Assembly (NCBI GenBank): GCA_027069035.1 | Contig: JALXFI010000331.1 | Coordinates: forward strand, 1 to 45,475 | Reading direction: 5' to 3' | DNA length: 45,475 bases | Source: a bacterium | Lineage (GTDB): Bacteria; Desulfobacterota; GWC2-55-46; S146-80; JALXFI01 | In this document: positions 2,356 to 35,517 of the stretch, in pieces | How the letters are laid out: each line of letters begins with the position of its first letter | Position numbering within the stretch: the stretch's first letter is position 1 | Notes under the pieces: generated by a model | Database searches by the model: none | Told to the model about the DNA's origin: nothing | What the model saw: the letters and a program-made list of their open reading frames with translations, nothing else | Position numbers and translations under genes: made by a program

Positions 2356-4254
2356 TCAATCGATGAACTCCCTATGCCAGAGTTCCAGCATAAGTAATGT
2401 CCACAACCTTTGTGAGTGATCTATTCTACCTGAAATATGCTCGGCCAACAATCTTCTAATGCCATCTGACTTGAAATATCCTCTTTCTATTGAACGACGA
2501 CTTAAAAGTGTATCAGACAGATAGTCTTTAAGATCATGCCTGAACCATCTGCAAACAGGGACGCCAAACCCTTTCTTGGGTCTCCTCAAGACTTCCTCTG
2601 GTATGATCTTCTTAAAAGCTTTCTTCAAAATATACTTCTTTATCATGCCTTTAAGCTTGTAATCTACAGGGATCCTTGCAACAAATTCTATAAATTTATG
2701 ATCAAGAAAAGGAGAACGAACTTCTAATGAATTTGCCATAGAGGCAATATCAACTTTTACTAAAAGATCGTATGGAAGATACGAATTAATATCTACTTCC
2801 ATTGTTTTCTCTACCATAGAGCTAGCACTTGTTTTTTTAAACAGAGTCATAAGATAGTCATAGCTATTTATATTCCTCATTTGACTTAACATATTACTGG
2901 AATAAAACTCCTTTTTTTGTTCTTCAGTAAAACACACCATCCATTTTATGTATTCCTGACCATCTGACCACAATGACCCCCGAATAAACCGTTTGAGTCT
3001 TTTAACCCTGCTGACATTCCCATCAGACTCGGGGAAAAAATCCAAAAATACCAGAAGGCTCTTTCGAAAAGAAGATGGAATGGCTTTAAAGTATCTTAAT
3101 ATTTTCTGTGCAAGATATCTATCATAACCCGCAAAATTCTCATCACCTGCATCACCACTCAAGGCAACCGTAACATACTTTCTGGTCATTCTGGAAAGAT
3201 AGTATGTAGGCAAGGCAGAAGAATCGGCATAAGGTTCACCATAATGTTTTACAAGCTTAGGTAGGATATCCAGAGTATCGTATTTTAATATGAACTCATG
3301 ATGGTCAGTGTTAAACTTTTCAGCGATTATCCTTGCATAAGGAAGTTCATTATACAATTCTTCCTCAAAGCCAATAGAAAATGTTTTTGCAGGTTTATCC
3401 ATCAAGTCGCTCATTAAAGCAACAACAATACTCGAATCAACCCCCCCACTCAAAAAAGCCCCTAATGGCACCTCTGAAATCAATCTCGATTTAACCGTTT
3501 CTTTTAATATGTCTATTAATTCCTCAATAATTTCCTCCTCATCTTTAACACTTAATTTTTCACTGTAACCGATTCTCCAATACCTTTTAATATCTATATT
3601 TCCATTCCCCAGGATCAAGTAGTGTGCTGGTGGTAGTTTGTAAATGGACTTAAAGGCTGTCTTGGGTGCAGGGATGTATTGATAACTTAGATAATAGTGT
3701 ATTGCCTCATAATCCACCTCCCTTAAAACGGATTTATCTTCCATGATTGCCTGCATCTCCGAAGCAAAAACAAGTCTCTTTTTATCCCAATAATAAAAAA
3801 GGGGCTTTTGTCCCAATCTATCTCTTGCCAAAAACAGCTTTTTTCTTTTTTCATCCCATATAGCAAATGCAAACATTCCTGAAAACCTGGAAAGACACCC
3901 CTCCCCCCATTCCTCATAAGCATGAATAACAACCTCCGTATCCGATGAGCTTTTGAAAACATGCCCTCTCGTTTCGAGTATAGCCCGAATCTCTTTAAAG
4001 TTATAAACCTCTCCATTATAAGTTATCCATATTGAACCATCCTCATTGGACATCGGCTGATGGCCATTGGGGGAAAGGTCAATGATAGAAAGCCTTCTGT
4101 GACAAAGTCCAACATGATTGTCCTTACTTATCCATATGCCACTGTCATCAGGGCCTCGATGACTCAGTATATCTGCCATATTTACAGCCAGAGCCCGAAG
4201 TTCATCTCCTGCCATCTGTCCAGACAGATCAACTAAGCCAGCAAAACCGCACAT
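2356..4254 (-). CDS. Asparagine synthase B-family glutamine amidotransferase (glycan-associated paralogue 1)
   Basis: 632 aa. Starts MCGFAG (Ntn Cys nucleophile directly after Met). HRGPDDSG and RLSIIDL GATase-II blocks. PP-loop SGGVDSS. Confidence 0.9.
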   Translation of the reverse strand: MCGFAGLVDLSGQMAGDELRALAVNMADILSHRGPDDSGIWISKDNHVGLCHRRLSIIDLSPNGHQPMSNEDGSIWITYNGEVYNFKEIRAILETRGHVFKSSSDTEVVIHAYEEWGEGCLSRFSGMFAFAIWDEKRKKLFLARDRLGQKPLFYYWDKKRLVFASEMQAIMEDKSVLREVDYEAIHYYLSYQYIPAPKTAFKSIYKLPPAHYLILGNGNIDIKRYWRIGYSEKLSVKDEEEIIEELIDILKETVKSRLISEVPLGAFLSGGVDSSIVVALMSDLMDKPAKTFSIGFEEELYNELPYARIIAEKFNTDHHEFILKYDTLDILPKLVKHYGEPYADSSALPTYYLSRMTRKYVTVALSGDAGDENFAGYDRYLAQKILRYFKAIPSSFRKSLLVFLDFFPESDGNVSRVKRLKRFIRGSLWSDGQEYIKWMVCFTEEQKKEFYSSNMLSQMRNINSYDYLMTLFKKTSASSMVEKTMEVDINSYLPYDLLVKVDIASMANSLEVRSPFLDHKFIEFVARIPVDYKLKGMIKKYILKKAFKKIIPEEVLRRPKKGFGVPVCRWFRHDLKDYLSDTLLSRRSIERGYFKSDGIRRLLAEHISGRIDHSQRLWTLLMLELWHREFID

Positions 4255-13972: not shown

Positions 13973-14769
13973 GGTGGATTACCCTTCTCCCACAGTTCAG
14001 ATAAGTATCTATAGTCTCTATATGTATCCATACACTGCCAGAAACCTCTATGATGAAAAACCTTTAGCTCTCCATCAGACGCAAGTCTTTCCAATGGTTC
14101 TCTTTCAAATACACAACCATCATCAGCCGAAAGATAATCAAAAAACCTTCTATTAAAGATGAAATATCCTCCGTTTATCGAACTATTATTAATCACCGGC
14201 TTTTCTTTAAAAGAAAGAACCTGATCTTTATTTATTAATAATTCCCCATATCTGGACGGAGGAGTTACACCTGTTATTGTCCCAATCTTGCCGTGACTCT
14301 TATGAAACCTAAGCAGTTTATTGATATTCAAATCTGTTATACCATCTCCATAGGTTAACATAAAGGTATCCCCATCGATAAAACCTTCTATTCTCTTTAT
14401 GCGCGCTCCTGTCATTGCATTCAATCCTGTATCTACAAGGGTAATCTTCCAGCCATATTCAGAATGTCTGGGATGTATATCAATTTTTCGTGTTCCAAGT
14501 TCTATAGTAAAATCATTGGAAAGCATTTCATAATGATAAAAATATTCCTTGATTACATATCCCTTGTAACCAAGACAGAGGATAAAATCTGTAAAGCCAT
14601 AATGTGCATAGATTTTCATTATATGCCATAGAATCGGCATACCACCTATTTCGACCATAGGTTTTGGTTTTATCTCAGTCTCTTCCCTTAATCTTGTTCC
14701 AAAACCACCACAAAGTATAACAACCTTTATACCTGTAGCTTTACCTTTATTTTTACCTTCTAAAGCCAT
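13951..14769 (-). CDS. rfbF: Glucose-1-phosphate cytidylyltransferase
   Basis: 272 aa. VVILCGGFGTRLREETEIKPKPMVEIGGMPILWHIMKIYAHYGF is the RfbF/DdhA N-terminal signature. Confidence 0.9.
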   Translation of the reverse strand: MALEGKNKGKATGIKVVILCGGFGTRLREETEIKPKPMVEIGGMPILWHIMKIYAHYGFTDFILCLGYKGYVIKEYFYHYEMLSNDFTIELGTRKIDIHPRHSEYGWKITLVDTGLNAMTGARIKRIEGFIDGDTFMLTYGDGITDLNINKLLRFHKSHGKIGTITGVTPPSRYGELLINKDQVLSFKEKPVINNSSINGGYFIFNRRFFDYLSADDGCVFEREPLERLASDGELKVFHHRGFWQCMDTYRDYRYLSELWEKGNPPWKVWEE

Positions 14770-14790
14770 TCCAGTCCAGTAAACTTTTTA

Positions 14791-23534: not shown

Positions 23535-24596
23535 TTATCCAAGATAATCTTCAGCTAAAATACTTTCAATCTGCCCAACAACATTAAATATACCATCCGT
23601 CAGAATTGATGCCAAAGTGGTAGAATTGTTATAAAGTCTTTGCCTCTCTTCAATATCTTTTAAAAAATCCTCAATAATGTCTCCCATCTCATCATTATTT
23701 ATAAGAGATACTTCACGTTTTATTCCTTTAACAAAACCCCTTTCTATCAATGGTGAAATATTTTTCACCTCTGTGTCTATTGAAGGCAGAACAAGTGTGG
23801 GTATACTCAACGCTATCATTTCGTATACAAGAGTCCCTCCAGATGTTATAGCTGCTTCACATTGGGATTGAAGATATACTAAGTTTGTACAATTTTGTAT
23901 AAGTTGCACTCTTCTTTTTTTGTCTTTGTTGAGCAAAATGGTTTTTATGTCTTGTAAGTATTTGAAAGCAGGACCTAATGCTATCAGGATTCTGAAAGAG
24001 TTATAATTATTCGAAAGCAATACATTTAAAACTCTTGATGAAATATTACAAGGGTCCGCTCCTCCAAAACAAATGAAGAGATTCCTAATAACTGGTGAAT
24101 AACTTGTACGTTTATAATTAGATATCTCAGGGGCAATCACCATATAGTCAATACCAAGCAAATAACAGGTTTTTAGTGAGCAATAGCGTTTTTCATCATG
24201 AGCAGTTAATGAAGGGTTTATTAACAATGTAGGTTCAATAAACTCCGTACTCACATCTTCATATACAACAGTTATAAGCTTCTCCTGATTGGCAAGATCT
24301 ATAATATGCTTTTTCCCATCTCTTAGATCAATATAAATGATAGCATTCAATTCTTTCGCAAGACAAACTATCTCCTTAGCCTCTTCTAAAGGCTTAACAT
24401 TTCTGTCCAGAACTTCCACATGGAAACCACTACTTTTGACTAAATTCACCCCCTCTGGATAGTTTTTCATTATAAACAGCAAATCTACATCTCTTCTTTT
24501 CAGTTCGTAAGCCAACCGCAGACATTTGAAGACATGTCCCATAGCAACACCATATATGTTACCTCCATCTACTCTGAAGATTATCTTTCTGCTCAT
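23535..24596 (-). CDS. PseG/SpsG-like nucleotide-sugar hydrolase (GT28-C-like fold)
   Basis: 353 aa. IIFRVDGGNIYGVAMGHVFKCLRLAYELKRRD matches the PseG N-terminal G-x-G-H...R/K-C-L pattern. ICFGGADPCN and ITSGGTLVYEMIALSIPTLVLP match the C-terminal half. Confidence 0.65.
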   Translation of the reverse strand: MSRKIIFRVDGGNIYGVAMGHVFKCLRLAYELKRRDVDLLFIMKNYPEGVNLVKSSGFHVEVLDRNVKPLEEAKEIVCLAKELNAIIYIDLRDGKKHIIDLANQEKLITVVYEDVSTEFIEPTLLINPSLTAHDEKRYCSLKTCYLLGIDYMVIAPEISNYKRTSYSPVIRNLFICFGGADPCNISSRVLNVLLSNNYNSFRILIALGPAFKYLQDIKTILLNKDKKRRVQLIQNCTNLVYLQSQCEAAITSGGTLVYEMIALSIPTLVLPSIDTEVKNISPLIERGFVKGIKREVSLINNDEMGDIIEDFLKDIEERQRLYNNSTTLASILTDGIFNVVGQIESILAEDYLG

Positions 24597-24598
24597 TA

Positions 24599-25609
24599 CT
24601 ATTCCAAAAGGGCAGATGAGATTAACGTATACTTTGGAATATCCCTCTTTAACTTTTTACCAAGAAAATCATTTATTAATTCAAGTTGACTTTCAGGGGT
24701 AGAAGGAGTAAGAAATTGGAGGTCATTTATTGTAAGTATATCCCCCTTTGACAAAGCCCTTCTTGAGTAAATTCCACGCCTTTTCCTAAATCTCTGACTT
24801 ACTTCGGATGTAGAGGGGACCTTAACCCCATCTCCGATAGCTTTTTCATAATTACGGACAAAAGAAACTAACCTTTTTAGCTCATCTGGTGAAGCTGAAC
24901 AGGCATGGTCTGGACCGGTCAGACTCTTATCCAGTGTAAAATGTTTTTCTATCACTTTTGCACCCATACAAACTGCTGCAAAAGCAATCTCTATACCAAC
25001 TGTATGATCAGAAAAACCATACGGATAGTTAAAGGTGGTAGCAAGAAGAGGTATAGCAGAAAGGTTACACTCTTCAATTGTGGTAGGATAACAGGAGACA
25101 CAATGTAAAATAATGATCTGTTTGTTTCCTTCCTCTTCAATCCATCTTACCGCAGTAGCAACCTCATTAAGGTAGCTCATACCGGTCGACAATATTATAG
25201 GTCTACCAAGTCTTGCCGCACTTTTAATAAGTTCTTTATAATTAAGATCCATTGAAGCAATTTTTACCGCTGGAGAGTTAATATTTTTAAGGAACTGAAT
25301 ATCTTCAAGAGATTCAGGTGTAGAAAATATTACACCATCTCTTTTTCTTGTATATTCGAATAAAAAAGCGTAATCTTCATAACTCAATTCACACATCTTA
25401 GCTGTTTTAAAACCAGGGTTGTCAGGATGTATAAAGTTTTCTGTTTTATAAGTCTGAATTTTCACCGCATTGGCTCCACACTCAAGTGCTGCATCTATAG
25501 TTTCACAGGCCAGTTTAACATCGCCATTATGATTGATGCCTATCTCAGCTATTATGTAAGCAAGCGATTCATCGCCTATTCTTTTGCCAGATATATCAAC
25601 ACATTCCAT
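24599..25609 (-). CDS. NeuB-family ulosonic acid synthase, paralogue 1 (NeuB/PseI/LegI class; specificity unknown)
   Basis: 336 aa. IIAEIGINHNGD, ILHCVSCYPT, FSDHTVG, VIEKHFTLDKS. C-terminal SAF-like RRGIYSRRALSKGDILTINDL. Confidence 0.9.
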   Translation of the reverse strand: MECVDISGKRIGDESLAYIIAEIGINHNGDVKLACETIDAALECGANAVKIQTYKTENFIHPDNPGFKTAKMCELSYEDYAFLFEYTRKRDGVIFSTPESLEDIQFLKNINSPAVKIASMDLNYKELIKSAARLGRPIILSTGMSYLNEVATAVRWIEEEGNKQIIILHCVSCYPTTIEECNLSAIPLLATTFNYPYGFSDHTVGIEIAFAAVCMGAKVIEKHFTLDKSLTGPDHACSASPDELKRLVSFVRNYEKAIGDGVKVPSTSEVSQRFRKRRGIYSRRALSKGDILTINDLQFLTPSTPESQLELINDFLGKKLKRDIPKYTLISSALLE

Positions 25610-25636: not shown

Positions 25637-27010
25637 TTAATAAGTGTTGAGAATAATATCAAGTTCTTCTTGATTAAACTTACGTAACACTTCAGGTTTT
25701 AATTGATAAGGGTCAAACTCTATATTATATTTATGCATAAACTCACTCTGCTCGCCAAAAAAGACTGTCCGCTTCATTCCATAATCTTCAATTATAGTAA
25801 AACCAAACCTTCTGTAATCAAGGGTTTGCTTCTTTCTATTAAAGTCACCAGCAGGATTGCCTGCAGGAATAACAATCGATGACTCAAGTCCCTCAAAAGA
25901 ACTATTGAATATATCTATTTTACCCTGGTTCTTCTTATCAAGATAAAAGAGTATGGTCTCTCTTACTTCAAAGGGTGTTATAATACCTTTGATCTTTAGA
26001 TCAGAAGCTTTAATACTTTCCGGACAAAAAACAATAAATGGAACACCTATCTCTTCTTCAAATAATCCCCACAGATAATCGTCAGGTAGCTTTCTGATGA
26101 GTGTATCTCTGCTTGGAAGTTTGCCGAATTTGCCATGTTCACCTAATGAATAACCATGATCAGAGAAAAGAAAAAGCAAAGTATCCTCAAGAAAACCCAT
26201 TCTGTATATCTCCTCAATAAAAGACGCAATACTATCTGAGACCTTCCTGTGAAGTTCAGAGTACATATTGAGTATCTCCTTGTTCTGTTCAGGGCTATAG
26301 TAATCTGCATTCACATAGATAGGGTCATCAAGTTCCACCTCTCCTCCATCTATACGATATGTCCATGGTTCATGAGGTTCCCATATATCTACCCATAACA
26401 TAAAAGGCTTTGATTCCATCTTTCTGTATCCCTTAAGCCACCTTTCTGCCGAATTTAAGACTTCCTCATGAAAAGGCTTATCCATTCTTGTTAAGCTTCT
26501 ATACTTAGCTCTAGTAGGTTTGGCAACATACCGATAAAATTGTTCATTATATTTCAATGGAACTTGTTCAGGGAAATTATAAAGCCCCATGTAATTACCT
26601 TTAGTCTCGCTCCACACAGGATGTCCAGCAATCCATTCAATACCTTGAAATCCTTGAAAAAGGTTAAATCTCATGTAATGAGGCACATCTGTTATACACT
26701 GTGTTGCAGTCCCGCTATCTGATAACCTCCCTGCGAGGGTCTCAGCGTTTTCGGGAATAGGTTCAAAATAACCATACTTCCAGTAGGGTATCCCTTCAAA
26801 GAAATCCCTTCTAAATTGAACAGTTGGATAGGAAACTGGAAAAAACTTATCATGAACAAGTGTATTACCATGTTTCTTTATAAAATCACTTAGGCTATCT
26901 TCTATCCGTAGGTCTTCAAGGATTGGATTCTTACTTTCGTAGATCCTTAAAAAATCTTTTCTATATGTATCAACACAAATTACTATGACATTGTTTACAG
27001 TTTCTGACAT
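25637..27010 (-). CDS. Alkaline-phosphatase-superfamily (sulfatase/phosphotransferase-like) protein with no signal peptide or TM helix
   Basis: 457 aa. VIVICVDTYRKDFL metal-site start and LFLFSDHGYSLGEHGKFGK distal block. The expected C/S-x-P-x-R position appears to read T-V-Q-F-R (alignment by eye). Confidence 0.6.
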   Translation of the reverse strand: MSETVNNVIVICVDTYRKDFLRIYESKNPILEDLRIEDSLSDFIKKHGNTLVHDKFFPVSYPTVQFRRDFFEGIPYWKYGYFEPIPENAETLAGRLSDSGTATQCITDVPHYMRFNLFQGFQGIEWIAGHPVWSETKGNYMGLYNFPEQVPLKYNEQFYRYVAKPTRAKYRSLTRMDKPFHEEVLNSAERWLKGYRKMESKPFMLWVDIWEPHEPWTYRIDGGEVELDDPIYVNADYYSPEQNKEILNMYSELHRKVSDSIASFIEEIYRMGFLEDTLLFLFSDHGYSLGEHGKFGKLPSRDTLIRKLPDDYLWGLFEEEIGVPFIVFCPESIKASDLKIKGIITPFEVRETILFYLDKKNQGKIDIFNSSFEGLESSIVIPAGNPAGDFNRKKQTLDYRRFGFTIIEDYGMKRTVFFGEQSEFMHKYNIEFDPYQLKPEVLRKFNQEELDIILNTY

Positions 27011-27744
27011 TCAATACCTCCAGATTTAGACCCTATGTAAGGATTTAAGTCCATTAAATATTTTTTTAAAGCAACTCCACCACAATTAAAAAGAAAATCA
27101 ATAACAGAAAGGTTTGGAATAAATTTAGAGCCAATTTGAGGATATTCATGTAACTCAAACTCCTGGAACTTAACCTCAATATGATTTCTCTTAAAATCAT
27201 CTAAGATTAGATATTCTTTCCCAGATTGTCCCGACAAATAAACACCTGCTTTAACTTTATTGCATATATCTAATATTAATTGACTTGCTTTTGAGACCAC
27301 GTCAAGCTTAGAACTTCTGACAATCTCAAGCTCAAAGTCAGAAATATCAAGTACAAACTCGATCAAAGAGAAATTAAAGTCAGCCAGAAATTTATGCTTT
27401 TGTCTATATATCTTCTCAAAAGAAGGGAAAATCTGATCGAAATATGGTGTTTTGTTATAGCAATGGTAAATACTTTTTAAATTTTTATCTTGCCAGTTCT
27501 CATTATAACTGATTTCTATATCTGAAATTAAGGTGTCTCTGGGGGCCTGTTTTATAGGTACAGTTATCCAGATATCTCTATCTTTATTTCTAATCTTGTT
27601 TCTATTTTCGAAATGTCTTCTTTTGAACTGAACACTATCAAGTATAACGTATATATCTGCATGAAATAATTTATGCCAAAATCCAAGCCATGGCAAGTGT
27701 TCTGGTTGATGTATTGTGCATATCTTTTGTCGCTCAACATACAT
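26995..27744 (-). CDS. WbqC-like family protein (function unknown; glycan loci)
   Basis: 249 aa. IHQPEHLPWLGFWHKLFHADIYVILDSVQFKRRHFENRNKI is the characteristic WbqC N-terminal pattern. Confidence 0.75.
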   Translation of the reverse strand: MYVERQKICTIHQPEHLPWLGFWHKLFHADIYVILDSVQFKRRHFENRNKIRNKDRDIWITVPIKQAPRDTLISDIEISYNENWQDKNLKSIYHCYNKTPYFDQIFPSFEKIYRQKHKFLADFNFSLIEFVLDISDFELEIVRSSKLDVVSKASQLILDICNKVKAGVYLSGQSGKEYLILDDFKRNHIEVKFQEFELHEYPQIGSKFIPNLSVIDFLFNCGGVALKKYLMDLNPYIGSKSGGIECQKL

Positions 27745-27749
27745 CTCTT

Positions 27750-29432
27750 CTATTTTACTGAAAAAACCTTTTTCCAGTCATTATAAACCATCTCTTTATA
27801 AAAAGTTCTATCATATTCACTAAGTTTGCTCTTATTAATTAAAGATGGCTTATACCACTTATTTATTGGAGCAATAAATCCTCTTTTATCAGTTCTGAAC
27901 GCAACCTCCTTAGGGATATATTTTGAAGCAACTTTTTTAAATATGTATTTTGTTATTCCATCTTTGATTTTGAAATTTGAAGATATACTAAAAGCAAAGG
28001 ATATTAAACGCGGATCCAAAAACGGTGACCTGTTCTCAATACTATGTGCCATACTCATCCTGTCTGCCATATGCAAAAGAACCTGCATGCTTGTACAAAA
28101 ATCTGTATATCCCATACCATGAACAACTCCATCGAAAGGCTCAAAACACTTCTCTGTTATACTCTCCACATAAGAGTTAATTATTTCATCATTGGCATCC
28201 TGGTATCTATTAATTAATCTTGCATATCTTTTACTCGGTTTATCATAATACTTTTTTATAAGTGGGAAATAATTGCTCATTGCGGGAAGATTATATATCT
28301 GTTCATCATGGTGTATAATGAGGTATCTATGATAACCACCAAACAACTCATCAACTCCTTCACCTGATAAAATGACTTTGACATATTTTGAAGCCTCTTT
28401 TAAGATACAAAACATATTAAAGCTCGACCACGTGCATGGAAAATCTAAATGATAGATTATTGTCTCTCTGTATTCTTCAAAATCTTCTTTTGTGGGTCTT
28501 ACGATGATTAGCTCTTGATTAATAGCATTTGCAGTCATCTTCGCATATTTTAATTCATCATATTGCTCACCATAATTATAGAAATCATAAGTAAGTGTAA
28601 ATATATAGCGGGGCTTTGCAATAACCGACAACAGTGAGCTATCCACACCTCCACTTAATAAACACCCAAAATCGTATACTGAATTCCCTGTTCTGATCGC
28701 TATAGCATCCTTTATAAGCATTTCTAATTCTTCGGTGGTCTCTTCTTCACTTTCTGGAACATTTGAATATAGGTTATCTTCAATGCGCCAGTAAGTCTTA
28801 TGTAATATTTCCTCTCCATCATATATTAAGTACTCCCCTGGTAAAATTGAGTATATATTCTTGAAAAGTGTATCTCTATCAGAGCATATCTCAAATGCCT
28901 TGTATGAATAACAATCTTTGTTTTCAACCGCATCAACAATAGTTAGAAGTGATTTAATCTCACTTGCAAAGAAAAAACCTTTCTCATTGCTCGTATAATA
29001 TATATTTTTCTCTCCAGCAATATCCCTGCACAAAATTAATTGCTTTTTATTCTTATCATAAATTGCAATGGCAAACATACCATTTATTTTTGGTAAAACA
29101 TTTAATCCCCACTCTTCATAGGCATGGAGGATGGTTTCGGCGTCAGAATCATTCATAAAAATATGAGCACTTGAAAGTCTTTTTCTTAATTCTCTATGAT
29201 TATATATCTCACCATTATAAACTAAGAGGATAGAACCATCTTCATTTGTGTATGGTATTGAATGCTTTTCATTATCAATAATAGAGAGCCTGACCATTCC
29301 CATAGATATATTATTAAAAACCACATACTCCTCTTGATCAGGTCCCCGATGTCTTATCTTAAGCAACATCTCTGAGGTCAACTTATTCAAGTCGAGTCTT
29401 TTTTTAGCAACAATGCCTACTATTCCACACAT
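27750..29432 (-). CDS. Asparagine synthase B-family glutamine amidotransferase (glycan-associated paralogue 2)
   Basis: Start set at the ATG at 29432 so the protein begins MCGIVG (obligatory Ntn Cys). The ORF-track start at 29450 is a GTG. HRGPDQ, RLSIIDN and the PP-loop LLSGGVDSS are present. TAA-g-ATG junction with the upstream gene. Confidence 0.9.
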   Translation of the reverse strand: MCGIVGIVAKKRLDLNKLTSEMLLKIRHRGPDQEEYVVFNNISMGMVRLSIIDNEKHSIPYTNEDGSILLVYNGEIYNHRELRKRLSSAHIFMNDSDAETILHAYEEWGLNVLPKINGMFAIAIYDKNKKQLILCRDIAGEKNIYYTSNEKGFFFASEIKSLLTIVDAVENKDCYSYKAFEICSDRDTLFKNIYSILPGEYLIYDGEEILHKTYWRIEDNLYSNVPESEEETTEELEMLIKDAIAIRTGNSVYDFGCLLSGGVDSSLLSVIAKPRYIFTLTYDFYNYGEQYDELKYAKMTANAINQELIIVRPTKEDFEEYRETIIYHLDFPCTWSSFNMFCILKEASKYVKVILSGEGVDELFGGYHRYLIIHHDEQIYNLPAMSNYFPLIKKYYDKPSKRYARLINRYQDANDEIINSYVESITEKCFEPFDGVVHGMGYTDFCTSMQVLLHMADRMSMAHSIENRSPFLDPRLISFAFSISSNFKIKDGITKYIFKKVASKYIPKEVAFRTDKRGFIAPINKWYKPSLINKSKLSEYDRTFYKEMVYNDWKKVFSVK

Positions 29433-29433
29433 C

Positions 29434-30750
29434 TTATTCCCAGGTATCACCTCCGAGTAATGTATATTTTAATCCATTTTCGTTCAGCTTATACCTCGAC
29501 CAAACCTCACATGTATCCATTACAATCTTTGTATCTTTTAAATATCTCTTCAATTTAGAACAACTTATCTTTTTATACTTACTATGAGCTGTAAGTACCA
29601 AGACAGCATCGAAAGAAGAGATATCTTCTGGAAAATCAACCACTTGAGTCTGAGTTATCTCATATAACGTAGCCTTTGAATACATAGGATCATTTATACC
29701 AACCTTTATACCTTTATCAGAAAATAGTTCTATAAATCTCAATGCAGGACTGTTGAGATGAAGTCTTGAATCAGGTCTATAAGACAACCCAAGAATTAGA
29801 ACCGACGACACTTTCTGAGAAAGAACCCTCTCAGAAATTATCTGAATCATTTCATAGTCTGTTCTCATTGCTTCATTTAATAGAGTTAAGCTCTCTGGCA
29901 CCTTGCTCGCTTCAGACAGGAAATAACTTGACATGGGAAAGTTAAATCCACCTATACCAGCCGTAGGGCGATATTCGTTAAGCTCAGGATGGGTTGCTGC
30001 AAGTTGTATCACCTTGTTGATGTTACACCCTGGAAATGCCTGAGAAAGTTGGTTTGCAAATGCCATATTTATATATTGAAATGAATTCTCAACACATCTC
30101 GCAAGTTCTACTTCAAAAAAGTTTTCAACTGTCACAATATTATCGTCGATAAGCTCGCAAATTTCCTTAGCCACTAACAGCGATTTATTATCATGACTGC
30201 CGATTAGTCTCCCTAAAGAAACATTCTTAACGTAAGGGTTATAATCCCAATCTCTTCTTGGAGCAACTACCATCAAGTAATCTTTACCTAAAGACTTGCC
30301 TGCCTCACTCAACGCAGGTATAACTATCTCCTCCATCGTTCCTGGTAGAAATGACGACTCCAATATTATTATTGGCTTGAGATTGTTTCTTAATATTGGG
30401 ATATCTTTGAGCTTATTAAGGACATTATAAAGATTTTGATATGTTGGTTTACCAGCCTTCTCCACGGGTACACATAAGAAGTGAACGAGTATGTCTTTTA
30501 GATTTATATTATCAATAGTTTTTAATGAACAATTCTCAAGCTCACCTTCCACAACCACATCATAAGCCCAGTATGTTTTTCTTAATTCTTTAAAATGTTG
30601 CTCTAATTGCTCAATAGTTTTATATTTTGTATCAATTAATATACAACTAATTCCTAATTCTGAATACTTTATTAAGGTATAATATCCTAAATATCCACTC
30701 CCCCATATCGCTATAGAGAAATTATTGTTAAGTAATTCTTTTGTATACAT
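29434..30750 (-). CDS. UDP-glucose/GDP-mannose dehydrogenase-family protein; catalytic Cys position apparently Asn
   Basis: 438 aa. IAIWGSGYLGYYTLIKY Rossmann motif. The central region TAGIGGFNFPMSS aligns by eye to the family GG-x-C-x-P-K-D motif with C replaced by N and K-D replaced by M-S. Confidence 0.7.
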   Translation of the reverse strand: MYTKELLNNNFSIAIWGSGYLGYYTLIKYSELGISCILIDTKYKTIEQLEQHFKELRKTYWAYDVVVEGELENCSLKTIDNINLKDILVHFLCVPVEKAGKPTYQNLYNVLNKLKDIPILRNNLKPIIILESSFLPGTMEEIVIPALSEAGKSLGKDYLMVVAPRRDWDYNPYVKNVSLGRLIGSHDNKSLLVAKEICELIDDNIVTVENFFEVELARCVENSFQYINMAFANQLSQAFPGCNINKVIQLAATHPELNEYRPTAGIGGFNFPMSSYFLSEASKVPESLTLLNEAMRTDYEMIQIISERVLSQKVSSVLILGLSYRPDSRLHLNSPALRFIELFSDKGIKVGINDPMYSKATLYEITQTQVVDFPEDISSFDAVLVLTAHSKYKKISCSKLKRYLKDTKIVMDTCEVWSRYKLNENGLKYTLLGGDTWE

Positions 30751-30772
30751 AGTTCTACTCCTTTTTAGATAC

Positions 30773-31426
30773 TCAGATTATCATATTATAAACTTCAAAA
30801 CCTTCGGCATATCTACCACCACATCTTGCCCCTCTAACAGCAGCTAATCCAAATATCGCCTCCTTCGAGAAATAATCTGAAGTAGTAGTAACACCATTGT
30901 ACTGTGAAGTATATGATGCTATAGCTTCCACTTTTTTCGTAATATCTTGCTCAGAAAGACGGATGAACAGATTCGGATTAAAACCATAGGCACTATTTAT
31001 TATTTCATATCCCAACACAGTCTCTCTCTTAAAGGCTTTCAAGGCAGATATTGATACAGTTCTATGATCCTGATGCACATCATTATAAGTAGGGACAAAT
31101 ACAATGTCAGGTTTAAATTCTTTCTTTATACGGTAAAGTTCTTCAAGAATTAGTTGTCTATACTCTGGGAATAACTGCCCTGCAATTTCAAAATTTATCT
31201 CTAAGTTATCATCGTTTAATCCAAGATAATGAAGGGCATTTTTTTGTTCATCAATTAATCTGTCTTCCTGAATTTCTCCACGAAATGATTTTCTGTTGGC
31301 TGTGAGGGCTAAAACATAAATCTCTGCATTCTTAGAATATTTTGCAATTGTTCCACCACACCCAAATTCTATATCATCCATGTGTGCAGATATGCATAAT
31401 ATGTTCTTACCATTCAAATCTATCAT
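30773..31426 (-). CDS. PIG-L/LmbE-family N-deacetylase
   Basis: 217 aa. ISAHMDDIEFGCGGTIAKY (AHxDD) and VHQDHRTV (HxDH). Confidence 0.85.
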   Translation of the reverse strand: MIDLNGKNILCISAHMDDIEFGCGGTIAKYSKNAEIYVLALTANRKSFRGEIQEDRLIDEQKNALHYLGLNDDNLEINFEIAGQLFPEYRQLILEELYRIKKEFKPDIVFVPTYNDVHQDHRTVSISALKAFKRETVLGYEIINSAYGFNPNLFIRLSEQDITKKVEAIASYTSQYNGVTTTSDYFSKEAIFGLAAVRGARCGGRYAEGFEVYNMII

Positions 31427-31442: not shown

Positions 31443-32210
31443 TTATACCTTTAAGAAAAGCCTGTCATAAGCATCTATCACGTTTTTAAGGTTCAACTGC
31501 TTTGAGTTCTCTCTCAGGAAGTTAACAATCTTAACAATCCTTTTATAATCCTCAGGCGTATCCATCGTAATTCTAACATCAGGTCGATTCTGCCAGTCTT
31601 TAGCATGTAGAGTTACGACATTAAAGTTATCTATATTCTCATGTATATAATCTACAACATGTTCGAAATGATTAGACTTATATGCCTTTTGATGAGATAT
31701 TTTTAGTGCTTTCAAGGTAACAATCTCTTCTTGAGCCCCAACTGGGAGATTTTTGATATATGTATAGTCTGCCTTTAGTGTCAAATGCTCTGCCAACATC
31801 CGTGCTGTTGAATTCATATCTGTTAAAGGGTCATCAGCTGTTGCTCTAACGATATCAGTTACACCAAAGTTTTCTGCACATTCAATATACCTCTTAAGCA
31901 CATTATCACTACTACCTGTTATATATTGCATCTTATAATCATCCAAAATAAGTCTTACAAGTTCTGCTTCTCTCTCTTCAGAAAGAGCCACATAAACCCT
32001 CTCTGTATCAAAATAATGTAAAAATCTCTTTACCAGAAAAACGATAGCAGGCATTCCAAATATTGGAGCTAATATCTTCGCATGAAGTCTTGAAGACCTT
32101 ATCCTTGCCTGGATAATAATTCCCCAACTTTTAGAGCTGGTAATTATATCTCTCTCTTTCTGCAAATCTTTACTCTTTTGTAGTGTTTCGACAAATAAAT
32201 TGTCTTTCAT
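31443..32210 (-). CDS. SpsF-like cytidylyltransferase (CTP_transf_3)
   Basis: 255 aa. IIIQARIRSSRLHAKILAPIFGMP, SDNVLKRY, IVRATADDPLTD. Confidence 0.75.
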   Translation of the reverse strand: MKDNLFVETLQKSKDLQKERDIITSSKSWGIIIQARIRSSRLHAKILAPIFGMPAIVFLVKRFLHYFDTERVYVALSEEREAELVRLILDDYKMQYITGSSDNVLKRYIECAENFGVTDIVRATADDPLTDMNSTARMLAEHLTLKADYTYIKNLPVGAQEEIVTLKALKISHQKAYKSNHFEHVVDYIHENIDNFNVVTLHAKDWQNRPDVRITMDTPEDYKRIVKIVNFLRENSKQLNLKNVIDAYDRLFLKV

Positions 32211-32216: not shown

Positions 32217-33980
32217 TCAATAATACACTATATCATGGATTGTCTTATAGAAATCGAAGTTTTCTTCCATATTAATTAGTTCCCGAAATTTCTCAAAAGG
32301 ATAACTTCTTTTATTGTTCTCAATGTCATTAATCCACTCAATTATCTCTTCAGCAGTTTTCACACACATGTCAGGAAAATCTCTATAATAGAAATATTGT
32401 AAAGATGGATCAACATCAAAGACAAAAGTTGGGAGTTTAAACTGTAAAGCTTCAGCTGCAAGAGATGAACCCGCGGTAATAGCATAGCTAACTTTTAACA
32501 TCAATTCATATGGACTACCAGTATAAACTTCTATATTAGATGGTTTATCCTTTAATGTTTCTAATTCATTGTAGAACTGTTGAACCCTTTTTGTAGGGCC
32601 GAGCTTTGGCTTAATATATAAAGTCCTGTCACTAAAAAAAGAGGCAACTTTAAATAGTTCCTTATAAATATATTCCCATTTTTTATTCTGAGGACTCTGG
32701 AAAAATACTATATCTTTCGGACGATTTTTTATAGATGATTTGAGTTGTTGTAAAAACTTCAGTCCATGTAAACTACCCACTGGGATTACCTTCATATTCT
32801 TACTCCAACAATGTCCTATTTTTTTATATACGTGAGAACCAAAAACAAAGAATATGTCAAAATCGATATGTCGCCAGATAGAAGTTACACCGGGAACAGG
32901 CAAACCATGATGCATTCCTATTGATTTGACATTCTTCTTTCTTAAGAGTGAGGTCCTCACAATATGCTCGGGGGCATATTCATCCCTTCCCCAGAATGCT
33001 TTTATCTCATATTTACCTAAGAAAGCGCATATTCTTGCTTTTCTATATGGGAGTAAAATTATCTCTTCGAATAACTGACTCTGGACATCCGAGAATCTAA
33101 AATAAAGTGTATTTATATCCTTAAATAGTTCAATTAACAGTTTGATAAATTGCATTATTGTTACTGCGCCATCACTACGCGAGGTATAATGTACTCCATT
33201 TAATTTATTTGTTATATCATTCAATAGCTTCTTGGGTATACTGTGGCGAAATAAGATCAGTAGATCAGTTTTACTTTTTACAGAATACAACGCTATATCT
33301 GGATTGGAATGATTAGAAGAAGATATAAAAGAAATCGGTTCTATATGAAAATCATACACAAGAACAAACCGTTTCTTCTTAGTTTTAAACCTCAGCTTTA
33401 AGATCAAATATGAACAAATTCCTATAAAGACTAATATGGAGTTAAGAAAATTAGAAATCTTATATAATAATGGAGTATAGGAAGCGAGTTTATTATCCAT
33501 TTTTTTATCAGGGAAGCACAGGTTAAATAATGCGATATCTTCTTCTGTTGTCCCAAGAAGAGTATATTTAGGGTTAGAGGTATTTAATTTGTCAAGAATA
33601 TATTTAATCTTAACCAGTTGTATCAATTTTCTTTTTATCTCCCTGATATTTATTTTTTCAATAGCATAAGAATATTCTATATCTTCGTATATTCTCTCTT
33701 TTTTTATTACATCATATGCTTTCTGAAGCAGAAGTTCTATTTCATTATACTCCTGATATCCTGGTGCAACCTCTCCAAACCTCAATCTATCAGAAAAGAG
33801 TGTATCAATATGTTGCACCTTGTTTAATTCTACTAATTTTCTAATCAAAAATGAGAGGAGATATCTGTTGACAAAAATGAAAGGTTCAATTGCAACGTAA
33901 AAAACCCTTCTTTTGAGGATAAATATATTCCACAACAATAATATAAATGTAATTTCGTTTACAATAATTAAGAGGGTCAT
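32217..33980 (-). CDS. Large uncharacterised membrane-anchored protein with a GT-B-like C-terminal half (candidate transferase/polymerase)
   Basis: About 587 aa from the ATG at 33980 (the ORF-track start at 33998 is a TTG). Hydrophobic MTLLIIVNEITFILLLWNIFIL and SILVFIGICSYLILKL. C-terminal VIPVGSLHG, DIVFFQSP and YAITAGSSLAAEALQFKLPTFVFDVDP. Confidence 0.4.
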   Translation of the reverse strand: MTLLIIVNEITFILLLWNIFILKRRVFYVAIEPFIFVNRYLLSFLIRKLVELNKVQHIDTLFSDRLRFGEVAPGYQEYNEIELLLQKAYDVIKKERIYEDIEYSYAIEKINIREIKRKLIQLVKIKYILDKLNTSNPKYTLLGTTEEDIALFNLCFPDKKMDNKLASYTPLLYKISNFLNSILVFIGICSYLILKLRFKTKKKRFVLVYDFHIEPISFISSSNHSNPDIALYSVKSKTDLLILFRHSIPKKLLNDITNKLNGVHYTSRSDGAVTIMQFIKLLIELFKDINTLYFRFSDVQSQLFEEIILLPYRKARICAFLGKYEIKAFWGRDEYAPEHIVRTSLLRKKNVKSIGMHHGLPVPGVTSIWRHIDFDIFFVFGSHVYKKIGHCWSKNMKVIPVGSLHGLKFLQQLKSSIKNRPKDIVFFQSPQNKKWEYIYKELFKVASFFSDRTLYIKPKLGPTKRVQQFYNELETLKDKPSNIEVYTGSPYELMLKVSYAITAGSSLAAEALQFKLPTFVFDVDPSLQYFYYRDFPDMCVKTAEEIIEWINDIENNKRSYPFEKFRELINMEENFDFYKTIHDIVYY

Positions 33981-34008
33981 TGAGGAAAGTTGAAACAAAG
34001 GCTAAAAA

Positions 34009-35517
34009 TTACAATCTAATTTTTAGCCAAACAGAATATATAGCACCTTCAGGTATTAAACCGCTCACCTTTTTTGTTAGGACTGGGCATTCTTTATTTA
34101 TTAAATATATGGTAAAGAGGCAAAACAGCACTATCAGCACGAACTTATAGAAGATTACCCAGAGTATTCGATCAGAAAATACTAAGCTGATTAAATAAAA
34201 CAATGAGGCACCAATGACACAAAATATCATCGGACCAAATCTATAGGGAATATTCAAGAGTCGTTGAGCATATACGATAGTAACTATCATAATAATCAAA
34301 AAAGTTATAAGCATTGATGTAGCAGCCCCCACCCCCCCAAGTGAAGGAATCAATAAAATATTTAAAATTACACTAATCATCGCTCCCATAAAGGTTCTAA
34401 AGGTAAAAAACCATGTCTTATATTTTAAGGTTACAGGTATTTCAAATATCTCCCGTGCATTCTGGAAAAACATTGACAGAATAAATATGGGAATCAATAA
34501 GTAAGAACTATGAAAACGTTCGTTTGCTATTAAATGAATAATTTCCTTAGAATATATACCTATCACCAATCCTACAAAAGAGGCAAGAGCAAAAAAGAGT
34601 GTAACATATTCAGAATACTCAGAGAGGGCTTCATCCCCCTCACCCCGTTTATCATCTAACTTCTTTACAAATGCGGGGGTTATCCCCTGACGAATCTGAA
34701 ACCAAAGCATGTTAAAAATACCTGCAAAGGCAAAGGCAAAAGAATAAAGTCCAACATCCCACATACCACTAAATCTCAACATCAATATACGGTCAAAATA
34801 TCTTTGAAACCAAGCACCTATGCCAGAAGGGACAAAGGGCATGCCATACTTCAAAGCCATCTTGAGGATAATTCTCTTCTTAGGATTAAACTTTGGTCTT
34901 ATCGTCCTTACAAGTAAAACAGTAGAGATAATCATAATTACAATCTCTGTTATCAGATCAGCCATCAAAAAACCTACCACACCCAGTTGGAGTAAAACCA
35001 GCACAACAACCTTCAGTGTGTGTAATAGTAATATTTTGCTCCCCCTCACCATAAAATATGCCTTGCCTTGATGAAAAACGATCTGACACGACTGAAGCAT
35101 TCCCGATATACAGAGGAAGAAGGCTGTCCATAATGGTATAATAACTACAAGGTTTGAAGGGAGCTGAGTGTCACCAAAGAATATAGTCTTAAGTGGAGTT
35201 ATAGTAAAAGAAAGAAAGAAAGAAATTACAAAGGCAACAATGATACTGCATCCATAAATATTACCCAACAAAACAGATAAAAACTCTTTTTTATCATGAA
35301 AACGGAAGAGTACTCGTCCACCAAATTTTACCATCCCAAATGTATTGAATATACCTATTACAGCTGTCACTGAGGCAGATATAGCAAGGATACCGTAATC
35401 CTCGGGGGATAAGTAACTCGTATAGACTGGAAGTAATAAAAAAGGAATGGTACGTGAAAAGATACTATACGATAAGAACCATAGAGAATTTTTCAATAGA
35501 AATTTAGTCTCTGACAT
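34009..35517 (-). CDS. wzx: Wzx-type oligosaccharide flippase (MOP/polysaccharide biosynthesis protein family)
   Basis: 502 aa with about 12-14 hydrophobic helices. N-terminus KNSLWFLSYSIFSRTIPFLLLPVYTSYLSPEDYGILA is typical of Wzx/RfbX proteins. Confidence 0.8.
   Translation of the reverse strand: MSETKFLLKNSLWFLSYSIFSRTIPFLLLPVYTSYLSPEDYGILAISASVTAVIGIFNTFGMVKFGGRVLFRFHDKKEFLSVLLGNIYGCSIIVAFVISFFLSFTITPLKTIFFGDTQLPSNLVVIIPLWTAFFLCISGMLQSCQIVFHQGKAYFMVRGSKILLLHTLKVVVLVLLQLGVVGFLMADLITEIVIMIISTVLLVRTIRPKFNPKKRIILKMALKYGMPFVPSGIGAWFQRYFDRILMLRFSGMWDVGLYSFAFAFAGIFNMLWFQIRQGITPAFVKKLDDKRGEGDEALSEYSEYVTLFFALASFVGLVIGIYSKEIIHLIANERFHSSYLLIPIFILSMFFQNAREIFEIPVTLKYKTWFFTFRTFMGAMISVILNILLIPSLGGVGAATSMLITFLIIMIVTIVYAQRLLNIPYRFGPMIFCVIGASLFYLISLVFSDRILWVIFYKFVLIVLFCLFTIYLINKECPVLTKKVSGLIPEGAIYSVWLKIRL

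Follow-up and report, generated by a model that had tools for sequence, protein, structure and literature searches.

A Cys-less homologue of sugar dehydrogenases is encoded directly in front of an AsnB-type amidotransferase in about 25 distinct bacterial gene clusters

A homologue of the UDP-glucose/GDP-mannose dehydrogenase family that has lost its catalytic cysteine is encoded directly upstream of an AsnB-type amidotransferase in about 25 of 27 non-redundant loci from at least five phyla, and most of the longer loci also carry genes for nonulosonic acids, the sialic-acid-like surface sugars. The pair was first seen in the window, a 45,475-nucleotide stretch of bacterial DNA (contig JALXFI010000331.1), where a preliminary description had reported a dehydrogenase-family gene one nucleotide away from the MCGIVG start of an AsnB-like gene and, by eye, an Asn at the catalytic Cys position together with loss of the K-D of the family motif. 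That observation was confirmed by our analysis, and the genes lie at the coordinates given in Table 1. The junction reads GAA TAA g ATG TGT, a one-base spacer, and the true start of the AsnB gene is the ATG at 29432 rather than the upstream GTG at 29450. One detail required correction, as WbqC had been said to overlap AsnB but is separated from it by a 5-nt gap. Instead, WbqC overlaps the next gene, encoding a sulfatase-like protein, by 16 nt, and PIG-L ends 22 nt before the dehydrogenase homologue.

Table 1. Positions in the window of the Cys-less homologue, its partner and surrounding genes
Position	Strand	Length	Feature	Profile matches and motifs
31443..32210	-		CTP_transf_3 cytidylyltransferase (CMP-ulosonate synthetase type), at the head of the module	
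30773..31426	-	217 aa	PIG-L/LmbE-type de-N-acetylase; lineage-specific accessory gene	Pfam PIG-L, 60 bits; AHMDD and HQDH metal-site motifs
29434..30750	-	438 aa	Cys-less homologue of the UDP-glucose/GDP-mannose dehydrogenase family	Pfam, all three UDPG_MGDP_dh domains; TIGR03026, 188.2 bits (cut-off 189.8); GSGYLGY...D40 NAD fingerprint intact; PRRDW in place of PER
30097..30099	-		Codon AGA, Arg218, at the position of the catalytic Lys	
29941..29943	-		Codon AAC, Asn270, at the position of the catalytic Cys	
27750..29432	-	560 aa	Partner AsnB-type glutamine amidotransferase	Pfam GATase_7 and Asn_synthase; TIGR01536, 385 bits (cut-off 267); N-terminal nucleophile Cys (MCGIVG); PP-loop SGGVDS at residue 260; SGEGVDELFGGY at residue 356
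26995..27744	-	249 aa	WbqC-family protein, function unknown; accessory gene in this lineage only	Pfam WbqC, 231 bits
25637..27010	-	457 aa	Alkaline-phosphatase-superfamily (sulfatase-like) protein	
23535..25609	-		NeuB-family nonulosonate synthase (24599-25609) and PseG-like nucleotide-sugar hydrolase (23535-24596)	
2356..4254			Second AsnB of the window, 38% identical to the partner AsnB	

To determine whether the catalytic Cys was absent, as a proper alignment had been named beforehand as the means of rejecting the claim, the protein was aligned by HMMER to solved family members. The alignments placed GGFNFPMSS against GGHCLAVDP of Cap5O (3ojl), GGHCLPKDP of 4r16 and GGSCFPKDT of 4a7p, such that Asn270 occupies the position of the nucleophilic Cys and Met and Ser (Ser274) replace the K-D. 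The same alignments indicated that the catalytic Lys of the E-x-x-K-x-x-E-N motif is Arg218, and a conserved Thr was also lost. The substitutions were neither an error nor a chance event, as the closest homologues, at 64% and 57% identity, keep F-N and A-R, and a further 24 representative clusters also lack the Cys. No compensating Cys is conserved in the clade: Cys219, next to Arg218, is Val in the sequences P0009 and P0016, and the only widely kept Cys is Cys36 in Rossmann strand beta-2. The fold was predicted to be intact, as an AF2 model (pLDDT 92.5) matched Cap5O, 4r16, CalS8 and human UGDH by Foldseek with TM scores of 0.72 to 0.83.

All Cys-less proteins formed one clade inside a divergent, Cys-containing subfamily, here called the parent. 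To determine which residues distinguish the clade, 27 Cys-less, 91 parent and 15 canonical representatives were compared. Thr96, Thr133, Arg166, Lys218, Glu221, Cys270, Tyr277 and Tyr324 are 88 to 100% conserved in the parent, with Cys, Lys and Thr at 100%, but have no consensus in the Cys-less clade. By contrast, G17, G19, Y20, G22, D40, R165, D167, E215, Q234, G268, G321 and D412 remain 93 to 100% conserved. The only clade-specific gains are L21, Y23 and E293, none of which lies where the parent's active-site residues were lost. Moreover, 23 of 27 clade members keep Lys or Arg at position 218 or 270, often as an E218/K270 charge swap, and the basal Cys-less subclades still keep Lys218. The genomes also carry canonical Cys-containing paralogues, and thus the Cys-less homologue is an extra gene.

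To determine whether the pairing with AsnB is conserved, loci (numbered here with the prefix L) were collected by exact protein look-up and by an N-terminal peptide pattern that is blind to AsnB. AsnB lay directly downstream in about 25 of 27 non-redundant loci, and the spacer was 10 nt or less in 15 of 23 measured. Partners 43 to 52% identical to the AsnB of the window sit beside the Cys-less homologue in 24 other non-redundant loci, 36% in the divergent L030. Partner AsnBs keep Cys1 and SGGxDS, and the ATP-pyrophosphatase (PP-loop) domain is intact in every partner but two. PDB sequence matches to the window's AsnB, 7ylz and 1ct9, cover residues 1 to 370 only. Over 22 loci, mean pairwise identity was 51% for AsnB and 27.5% for the Cys-less homologue, AsnB was the more conserved in all 231 pairs, and the two distance matrices correlated (r = 0.73; 0 of 2000 permutations reached it). 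Two lineages, L007/L008 and the Nitrospinae locus L051, have the Cys-less homologue without an adjacent AsnB. Four Cys-containing relatives had radical SAM enzymes, an SDR or an AMP-binding ligase as neighbors and never AsnB.

The preliminary description had also presented PIG-L, the dehydrogenase homologue, AsnB and WbqC as a cassette, but only the homologue and AsnB are constant. PIG-L lies directly upstream of the homologue in L001, L002/3, L009 and L010 and nearby in others, but is replaced by a DegT aminotransferase in another subclade. WbqC directly follows AsnB only in the window, L001 and L009, and L041 and L051 carry a copy elsewhere in the locus. The AF2 model of WbqC was confident (pLDDT 93), but no PDB sequence match and no significant PDB structural neighbor was found (best Foldseek E 0.04). 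The sulfatase-like gene is syntenic in L001 and replaced by a radical SAM enzyme in L009. The cytidylyltransferase occupies the same position in L009, and the NeuB and PseG-like pair, which defines the nonulosonic-acid context, is found downstream of the module in L009, L013, L041, L043, L047 and L048. This context fits the earlier suggestion of a ulosonic-acid acceptor, and the conserved, tightly spaced adjacency strongly backs a functional link between the homologue and AsnB. We conclude that the earlier interpretation is supported in part: the idea that the homologue stops at a different oxidation state is weakened by the additional loss of Thr96, Thr133, Arg166, Lys218, Glu221 and Tyr324, which are invariant in the parent, and by the absence of any new conserved active-site residue, and non-canonical amidation is not excluded but sits badly with the intact PP-loop domain.

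The explanation we favor, which we regard as about as likely as not, is that the Cys-less homologue no longer oxidizes sugars and serves as the obligate partner of a dedicated amidotransferase that tailors a nonulosonic-acid intermediate. In this view, the two proteins are made together, probably by translational coupling, and work as one unit. The homologue would bind the nucleotide-activated sugar, with a cationic residue retained in the old active-site pocket, and present or gate that sugar for AsnB, which would adenylate an oxygen of the substrate and replace it with glutamine-derived ammonia. The acceptor is unresolved, and we lean only slightly towards a carboxylate giving a carboxamide over an N-acetyl group giving an acetamidino group. 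PIG-L or DegT, upstream, would supply a free amine, and WbqC, an acyltransferase or methyltransferases, downstream, would be lineage-specific further tailoring steps. The residue losses, the clade, the synteny, the intact AsnB motifs and the co-inheritance were observed, but physical partnership, the absence of redox activity and the chemistry are inferred from them. Some observations speak against this model. The NAD fingerprint (GxGYLGY plus Asp40) is invariant across a clade with only about 25% identity, which suggests that the cofactor still matters, and a pure scaffold would not obviously need it. Moreover, no AsnB-family enzyme is known to require a partner protein, no fusion of the homologue with AsnB was seen among the 150 best representatives, the two lineages L007/L008 and L051 have the homologue without an adjacent AsnB, and no cultured organism with a known glycan was found to carry the pair.

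One possible but doubtful alternative is that the chemistry is amidine formation, in which the PP-loop domain of AsnB adenylates the carbonyl oxygen of an N-acetyl group on a CMP-nonulosonate, ammonia converts it to an acetamidino group, and the Cys-less homologue supplies the CMP-sugar binding site. Elsewhere, this role is played by PseA/PtmG with HisH/HisF-like partners. Acetamidino and N-methylacetimidoyl groups are known decorations of Pse and Leg and are made at the CMP-sugar stage (PMC5378307; SugarBase preprint 10.64898/2026.04.20.719630). Consistent with this reading, one or two SAM methyltransferases follow AsnB in several subclades, and an AsnB in the T. forsythia glycosylation locus has been proposed, though untested, for the Am group (PMC6120980). 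PP-loop enzymes such as GMP synthetase and argininosuccinate synthetase adenylate amide or urea oxygens. However, AsnB-family members characterized so far are understood to activate carboxylates, and Cys-containing relatives of the homologue are fused to, or sit next to, carboxylate-adenylating AMP-binding enzymes, which points to a carboxylate theme. Furthermore, a PIG-L deacetylase directly upstream would remove the very N-acetyl group needed.

A less likely alternative is that the homologue is still redox active and that the pair carries out a cysteine-independent oxidative amidation. NAD+ would oxidize a primary alcohol to the aldehyde, ammonia tunnelled from the AsnB glutaminase would take the place of the lost thiol or water to form a carbinolamine, and a second NAD+ would oxidize this directly to the carboxamide; a related "borrowing-hydrogen" amination is also possible. 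Consistent with this route, loss of Cys and gain of an ammonia-delivering neighbor coincide on the tree, as every sampled Cys-less subclade has AsnB and none of the four Cys-containing relatives does, the NAD fingerprint and Asp40 are invariant, and the basal Cys-less subclades still keep Lys218. Four-electron NAD-dependent oxidation without a thiol has a precedent in histidinol dehydrogenase. However, the route would not need the ATP-pyrophosphatase half of AsnB (SGGxDS, SGEGxDE), which is intact in nearly all partners, and Thr96, Lys218 and Glu221, which are used in hydride-transfer and oxyanion chemistry, are lost in most of the clade with no conserved substitute. It is improbable that the homologue acts on its own as a two-electron dehydrogenase that stops at the aldehyde or a ketone and feeds another enzyme such as an aminotransferase, with AsnB a neighbor with a separate task. 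Although the NAD site is kept and DegT lies directly upstream in one subclade, DegT is limited to that subclade, the adjacency and the correlated distance matrices point to AsnB, and Lys218 and Thr96 are lost. Finally, that the homologue is a functionless relic kept only by synteny is close to refuted: it evolves roughly twice as fast as AsnB and has lost its catalytic residues, but full-length open frames of 433 to 455 aa occur in more than 30 loci from at least five phyla, about 20 positions are 90 to 100% conserved, the AF2 model is confident, and the active-site motifs are conserved within the close subclade.

The best sequence matches (E 3e-27) and structure matches (Foldseek E 1e-25, TM 0.72 to 0.82) to the Cys-less homologue were the UDP-N-acetyl-D-mannosamine dehydrogenases Cap5O (3OJL) and P. 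horikoshii PH (4R16), which, like the wider family, share its three-domain architecture, Rossmann GxGxxG...D fingerprint and long central helix. Sequence identity is only 21 to 22%, however, and in addition to the losses above, the D-x-R before S-P in the C-terminal domain is missing. The parent subfamily (motifs GYIG, VPTE, APRRDW, VKxVEN and GGYCIPLSS), itself uncharacterized, is 25 to 33% identical and shares PRRDW, NQL and the lack of PKD. Its four sampled members sit in sugar-biosynthesis contexts containing radical SAM/SPASM, hexapeptide acyltransferase or DegT genes and, in L019, a NeuB, and some parent members are fused to AMP-binding or NUDIX domains.

AsnB-like amidotransferases of other glycan loci, such as WbpS of P. 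aeruginosa O6 and Tanf_01265 of T. forsythia (PMC6120980), are likewise full-length Ntn-glutaminase plus PP-loop enzymes, proposed to make uronamides or acetamidino groups. Those systems sit beside, or rely on, a canonical Cys-containing dehydrogenase (WecC in T. forsythia), and none is reported with a Cys-less partner. PseA/PtmG with HisH/HisF-like proteins (WbuXYZ type) also form a multi-protein ammonia-transfer system acting on nucleotide-activated N-acetyl sugars, in which a former enzyme (HisF-like) serves a non-original role. The protein families differ, no PseA/WbpG-type gene is part of the module, and the relationship, which would hold only if the amidine reading is right, is by analogy alone. 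A precedent for the kind of evolution proposed is provided by the P450-like auxiliary proteins of glycosyltransferases (DesVIII, EryCII and TylM3), in which an oxidoreductase fold has lost its key haem-ligating Cys and is retained as the obligatory, adjacent partner of another sugar-pathway enzyme, although fold, partner and pathway are unrelated. We found no paper describing the pair reported here. Loss of the Cys is a lineage trait, and the recurrence of the Cys-less homologue directly in front of AsnB, mostly among genes for sialic-acid-like surface sugars in the longer loci, points to an undescribed two-protein step in decorating those sugars.

To determine the genetic setting of the dehydrogenase homologue, here called DH*, the genes around it were annotated by profile searches. 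The window is a complete contig of a 2.16-Mb, 88%-complete MAG and consists of one large glycan locus with three NeuB paralogues, about seven cytidylyltransferase domains, and several radical SAM enzymes. All genes in the region lie on the minus strand, and their order in the direction of transcription is given below. In addition, a polysaccharide deacetylase, a FemAB-like protein, and a DegT aminotransferase stand in a row elsewhere in the locus, which may be a second set that frees an amine and then aminoacylates it.

Coordinates of the DH* region, listed in the direction of transcription, and of related features elsewhere
Feature	Location	Strand	Remarks
Wzx flippase	34009-35517	minus	
593-aa protein	32217-33998	minus	no Pfam match
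CTP_transf_3 cytidylyltransferase	31443-32210	minus	
PIG-L deacetylase	30773-31426	minus	
DH*	29434-30750	minus	
AsnB-type amidotransferase	27750-29432	minus	560 aa; ATG at 29432
WbqC protein	26995-27744	minus	
Sulfatase-like alkaline-phosphatase-superfamily protein	25637-27010	minus	
NeuB synthase	24599-25609	minus	
PseG-like hydrolase	23535-24596	minus	
Methyltransferase		minus	after the PseG-like gene
Radical SAM/SPASM enzyme		minus	after the methyltransferase
Polysaccharide deacetylase, FemAB-like protein, DegT aminotransferase	5471-8309	minus	in a row
Second AsnB paralogue	2356-4254	minus	632 aa; next to a GT4 glycosyltransferase and a Wzy-like polymerase
WbqC paralogues elsewhere in the genome	contig C53, 4686-5327; contig C283, 2525-3151		
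586-aa protein of locus L009	4681-6441		Pfam PF27859 (LIC12162)
593-aa protein of locus L010	13404-15185		Pfam PF27859 (LIC12162), weak match
DH*, PIG-L, FemAB-like protein, and methyltransferase of locus L051 (Nitrospinae MAG)	9989-13104		
DegT/DH*/AsnB/methyltransferase block and type IV pilus genes of locus L045 (Omnitrophota MAG)	5423-15192		

The preliminary description noted that a single nucleotide separates DH* from the MCGIVG start of AsnB and suggested, from an alignment by eye, that DH* lacks the catalytic Cys and the K-D of the family motif. The junction reads TAA-g-ATG-TGT-GGA-ATA-GTA-GGC, as noted. A phmmer search against all PDB chains aligned GGFNFPMSS of DH* with GGHCLAVDP of Cap5O (3ojl), GGHCLPKDP of the P. 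horikoshii UDP-ManNAc dehydrogenase (4r16), and GGSCFPKDT of a UDP-glucose dehydrogenase (4a7p), such that Asn270 occupies the nucleophile position of the GGxCxPKD motif, whose catalytic Cys forms the thiohemiacetal and thioester, and Met273-Ser274 replace the K-D. The same alignments indicated a loss that had not been mentioned, in that the catalytic Lys of E-x-x-K-x-x-E-N on the central helix is Arg218, whereas Asn222 of that motif is kept. One detail required correction: WbqC does not overlap AsnB but is separated from it by 5 nt, and it instead overlaps the following sulfatase-like gene by 16 nt. Apart from that detail, the observation held.

DH* is a structural member of the UDP-glucose/GDP-mannose (NDP-sugar) 6-dehydrogenase superfamily but fails the family's catalytic definition. 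The N-terminal NAD-binding, central helical, and C-terminal nucleotide-binding domains were each matched above gathering scores (PF03721, 48 bits; PF00984, 36 bits; PF03720, 63.5 bits), and an AlphaFold2 model built on 25 sequences was confident (pLDDT 92.5) and superposed on Cap5O, 4r16, CalS8, and human UGDH at TM 0.72-0.83. The Rossmann fingerprint G17-S-G19-Y-L-G22, with Asp40 as the acidic residue at the end of strand beta-2, is intact and is invariant across the Cys-less relatives. By contrast, DH* scored 188.2 bits, just below the 189.8-bit cutoff of the generic NCBIfam model for nucleotide sugar dehydrogenases (TIGR03026); other Cys-less relatives scored 84-140 bits and Cys-containing relatives scored 207-212 bits. 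The window's genome also carries canonical paralogues with GGHCIPIDP and GGSCFPKD, and five other genomes with DH* have additional, lower-scoring family paralogues.

To determine whether loss of the Cys was restricted to the window, homologues of DH* were collected. A word-indexed search of 5.8 billion proteins found only two close relatives, at 64% and 57% identity, both of which keep F-N and A-R. An exhaustive HMMER search of 1.84 billion cluster representatives gave 126 proteins at E ≤ 1e-30, and these score far better than canonical dehydrogenases do. When aligned, they defined a divergent subfamily with GGYC-IPLSS instead of GGxCxPKD, APRRDW instead of PER, NQL instead of NE, and no D-x-R before S-P in the C-terminal domain. 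In a tree of 133 representatives, every protein lacking the Cys fell in one clade nested within Cys-containing members. A sequencing error or a single-lineage mutation was considered for Asn270 and rejected, because Cys to Asn needs two base changes and the substitution is conserved in homologues. Cys219 was considered as a substitute nucleophile and likewise rejected, because it is not conserved in the subclade and also occurs beside the Lys in Cys-containing parents. We conclude that the absence of the Cys is the property of a clade and not an accident.

To determine what else was lost, alignment columns were compared across 27 Cys-less, 91 Cys-containing parent, and 15 canonical sequences. 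The Cys was 100% conserved in the parent and canonical representatives and 0% conserved in the Cys-less clade. The parent was 88-100% invariant at Thr96, Glu97, Thr133, Arg166, Lys218, Glu221, Cys270, Tyr277, Tyr324, and Trp255, and the Cys-less clade had no consensus at any of these positions. G17, G19, Y20, G22, D40, R165, D167, W168, E215, Q234, G268, G321, D354, and D412 remained conserved, and only L21, Y23, and E293 were clade-specific gains, none of which lies at a position where the parent's active-site residues were lost. As read from sequence, this pattern indicates loss of the ancestral catalysis with retention of the fold and of dinucleotide binding. One constraint does remain in the old pocket, as 23 of the 27 clade members keep Lys or Arg at position 218 or at position 270, frequently as an E218/K270 swap. 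In this apparent charge swap, read from the tree labels, subclades with Lys or Arg at 218 have Asn, Asp, Ser, or Ala at 270, and most subclades with Glu, Val, or Ala at 218 have Lys or Arg at 270.

Next, the neighbors of DH* were determined by three independent routes, all of which indicated AsnB. First, exact-sequence look-ups of representatives from five subclades found a gene of about 560 aa starting MCGI(A/V)G directly downstream in the window and in the loci L001, L002/L003, L009, L010, L011/L012, and L013/L014. Second, a metagenome scan with only the N-terminal pattern [AG][IV][WI]GxGYLGY found 12 loci with downstream sequence, all of which lack the Cys and have AsnB next. Third, the same pattern searched against one genome per prokaryotic species found 13 MAG loci, 12 of which have AsnB next. 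The pattern scans rested on a 12-sequence alignment and see only proteins with the GxGYLGY N terminus; a 5-sequence alignment found no relative in the genome contigs. The 13 MAG loci are titled Planctomycetales (two), Phycisphaerales, Ca. Scalindua, Syntrophales, Desulfobacterales, Desulfovibrionaceae, "Deltaproteobacteria," Omnitrophota, Pseudomonadota or Proteobacteria (two), Nitrospinae, and an unclassified bacterium. After removal of obvious duplicates, AsnB directly follows DH* in about 25 of 27 loci, although some loci are near-duplicates, related loci are not independent, and all relatives come from metagenomes or MAGs, with no cultured carrier that has a known glycan found. The exceptions are the protein P0009 (loci L007/L008) and the Nitrospinae locus L051, in which a PIG-L and a FemAB-like aminoacyl-transferase homologue, then a methyltransferase, follow DH* instead. 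No relative of DH* was found in 40 genomes of the window's class, and no member of the whole divergent subfamily was found in 300 other genomes of the phylum of the Syntrophales MAG. Thus, the module is sporadic, and the organism's own relatives gave no comparative information.

The pairing of DH* with AsnB was tight. The spacer from the DH* stop to the AsnB start is 10 nt or less in 15 of 23 measured cases, including two 1-nt overlaps. Over 22 loci, mean pairwise identity was 51% for AsnB and 27.5% for DH*, AsnB was the more conserved in all 231 pairs, and the two distance matrices correlated (r = 0.73; 0 of 2000 permutations reached it), such that the two genes travel together. None of the four Cys-containing relatives whose contexts could be read has an AsnB neighbor: they have a radical SAM/SPASM enzyme plus NeuB (locus L019); a B12-radical SAM enzyme, PIG-L, and an AMP-binding ligase (L052); a B12-radical SAM enzyme (L053); or an SDR plus DegT (L055). 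Some Cys-containing members are fused to AMP-binding adenylating enzymes (representatives P0066 and P0094) or to a NUDIX domain (P0119), which, together with the L052 locus, suggests that in the parent subfamily the oxidized product is adenylated and ligated. Several Cys-containing members also carry inteins with LAGLIDADG homing-endonuclease domains (P0010, P0020, P0052, P0104, and P0156); the insert follows the central domain, close to the catalytic-Cys loop, in P0010, P0020, and P0104 but precedes the central domain in P0052. We conclude that pairing with AsnB appears together with loss of the Cys.

The partner AsnB satisfied every sequence criterion of the class II (Ntn) glutamine-dependent amidotransferases. 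The nucleophile Cys directly follows the initiator Met in MCGIVG, GATase_7 was matched at 130 bits, the PP-loop ATP-pyrophosphatase motif SGGVDS lies at residue 260, the segment corresponding to SGEGxDE is SGEGVDELFGGY at residue 356, and TIGR01536 scored 385 bits against a cutoff of 267. Across loci, the partner AsnBs keep the N-terminal Cys and SGGxDS almost without exception. Matches to E. coli AsnB (1ct9) and human ASNS stop at residue 370 of 560, so the C-terminal substrate region, about a third of the protein, does not align with true asparagine synthetases, and the genomic context is glycan biosynthesis. The second AsnB paralogue in the window is only 38% identical to the partner, over residues 1-372, and has no dehydrogenase-like neighbor.

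Most loci long enough to judge carry NeuB, a CTP_transf_3 enzyme, a PseG-like protein, and a small radical SAM/SPASM enzyme, although L042 and L045 show no NeuB match within ±10 kb. The genes flanking the pair vary by subclade: PIG-L upstream and WbqC downstream in the window's subclade (window, L001, and L009); PIG-L upstream and a hexapeptide acyltransferase downstream in L010; DegT upstream and one or two methyltransferases downstream in the largest subclade (L013 and relatives); and a 331-aa protein of unknown function upstream and a methyltransferase downstream in L011. In each case, inferred from family names only, the upstream gene would produce a free sugar amine and the downstream gene would modify a nitrogen or an oxygen. 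The block in the Omnitrophota locus L045 lies directly after type IV pilus genes (PilB-like ATPase, PilC-like platform, and a pilin with N-methylation motif), which hints at pilin glycosylation. Proteins similar in size to the window's 593-aa protein lie near the module in L009 and L010.

The PIG-L gene of the window matched PF02585 at 60.4 bits and has the zinc-site motifs AHMDD at residue 15 and HQDH at residue 118, and its product is plausibly an active de-N-acetylase. A deacetylase has recently been inferred to act at the CMP-nonulosonate stage in Ca. Kuenenia (preprint 10.64898/2026.04.20.719630). WbqC matched its profile (PF08889) at 231 bits over 214 of 218 positions and belongs to a widespread family that has no biochemical definition, with 490 hits at E ≤ 1e-10 and three paralogues in this genome. 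WbqC has no PDB sequence match, and a confident AlphaFold2 model (pLDDT 93) had no significant Foldseek neighbor, the best matches (E 0.04, TM 0.30) being to HUP-type nucleotide-binding folds and too weak to use, so this common glycan-locus family lacks a solved representative and we infer no function for it. One candidate for a link between WbqC and acetamidino formation was C. jejuni Cj1324 (PtmG), had it been a WbqC protein, but the papers that could be read only call PtmG an amidotransferase, and the lead was dropped.

What the sequences and loci establish is that DH* lacks the residues needed for the family's two-fold NAD+-dependent oxidation of a sugar C6 alcohol to the acid, keeps the NAD fingerprint, and is co-inherited and tightly coupled with a complete AsnB-type enzyme in a setting that is, in most loci, nonulosonic-acid biosynthesis. 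Physical partnership, cofactor binding, absence of oxidation, and the chemistry of the pair are inferred, and the interpretation offered in the preliminary description was partly supported. The reading we prefer, though it is no more likely than not, is that DH* has become a non-oxidizing, ligand-binding partner of the amidotransferase, comparable in kind to the Cys-less P450-like auxiliary proteins DesVIII and EryCII of glycosyltransferases. In this view, AsnB would perform ATP- and glutamine-dependent replacement of an oxygen by NH on a nucleotide-activated nonulosonate or its precursor. We lean towards a carboxylate acceptor because every AsnB-family enzyme characterized so far activates a carboxylate, the Cys-containing relatives associate with carboxylate-adenylating ligases, and a cation is kept in the DH* pocket. 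Conversion of an N-acetyl to an acetamidino group remains a serious alternative, as such groups are common on Pse and Leg and are made at the CMP-sugar stage (PMC5378307; preprint 10.64898/2026.04.20.719630), and methyltransferases follow AsnB in several lineages. An unlikely but not excluded possibility is that DH* is still redox active and has acquired a new NAD-dependent chemistry in which ammonia channeled from AsnB takes the place of the lost thiol, for example in direct oxidative amidation of a sugar alcohol or aldehyde. Such chemistry would explain why Cys loss coincides with AsnB gain and why the NAD site is invariant, but it does not explain why the PP-loop half of AsnB is preserved or why Lys218 and Thr96 could be lost. 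If true, it would be a previously unknown two-protein route to amidated nonulosonic or uronic acids.

AsnB-like genes in glycan loci, such as WbpS, have been proposed to make uronamides or acetamidino groups, and Tanf_01265 is another such gene (PMC6120980), but none is described with a Cys-less dehydrogenase partner. Full-text literature searches on nonulosonic or legionaminic acid together with asparagine synthetases and nucleotide sugar dehydrogenases or their catalytic Cys found nothing on the pair. What is known is the fold and the amidotransferase family; what is new is a catalytically remodeled clade of that fold in an undescribed but widely conserved two-gene unit. These genes are likely to be labeled "nucleotide sugar dehydrogenase" and "asparagine synthase," and both labels are probably wrong in function.

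Nonulosonic acids (pseudaminic, legionaminic, and related acids) decorate flagella, pili, S-layers, and lipopolysaccharide, and their charge-altering modifications affect motility, phage recognition, and host interaction, but the enzymes that make most of these modifications are unknown. The conserved unit defined here, a dehydrogenase-fold protein without its catalytic residues plus a dedicated AsnB, has spread among Planctomycetota, Desulfobacterota-type lineages, Omnitrophota, Pseudomonadota, and the window's own organism. The unit gives a concrete, testable candidate for one such modification, and it offers a clean natural example of an oxidoreductase fold being repurposed, either as a pseudoenzyme partner or for new chemistry.
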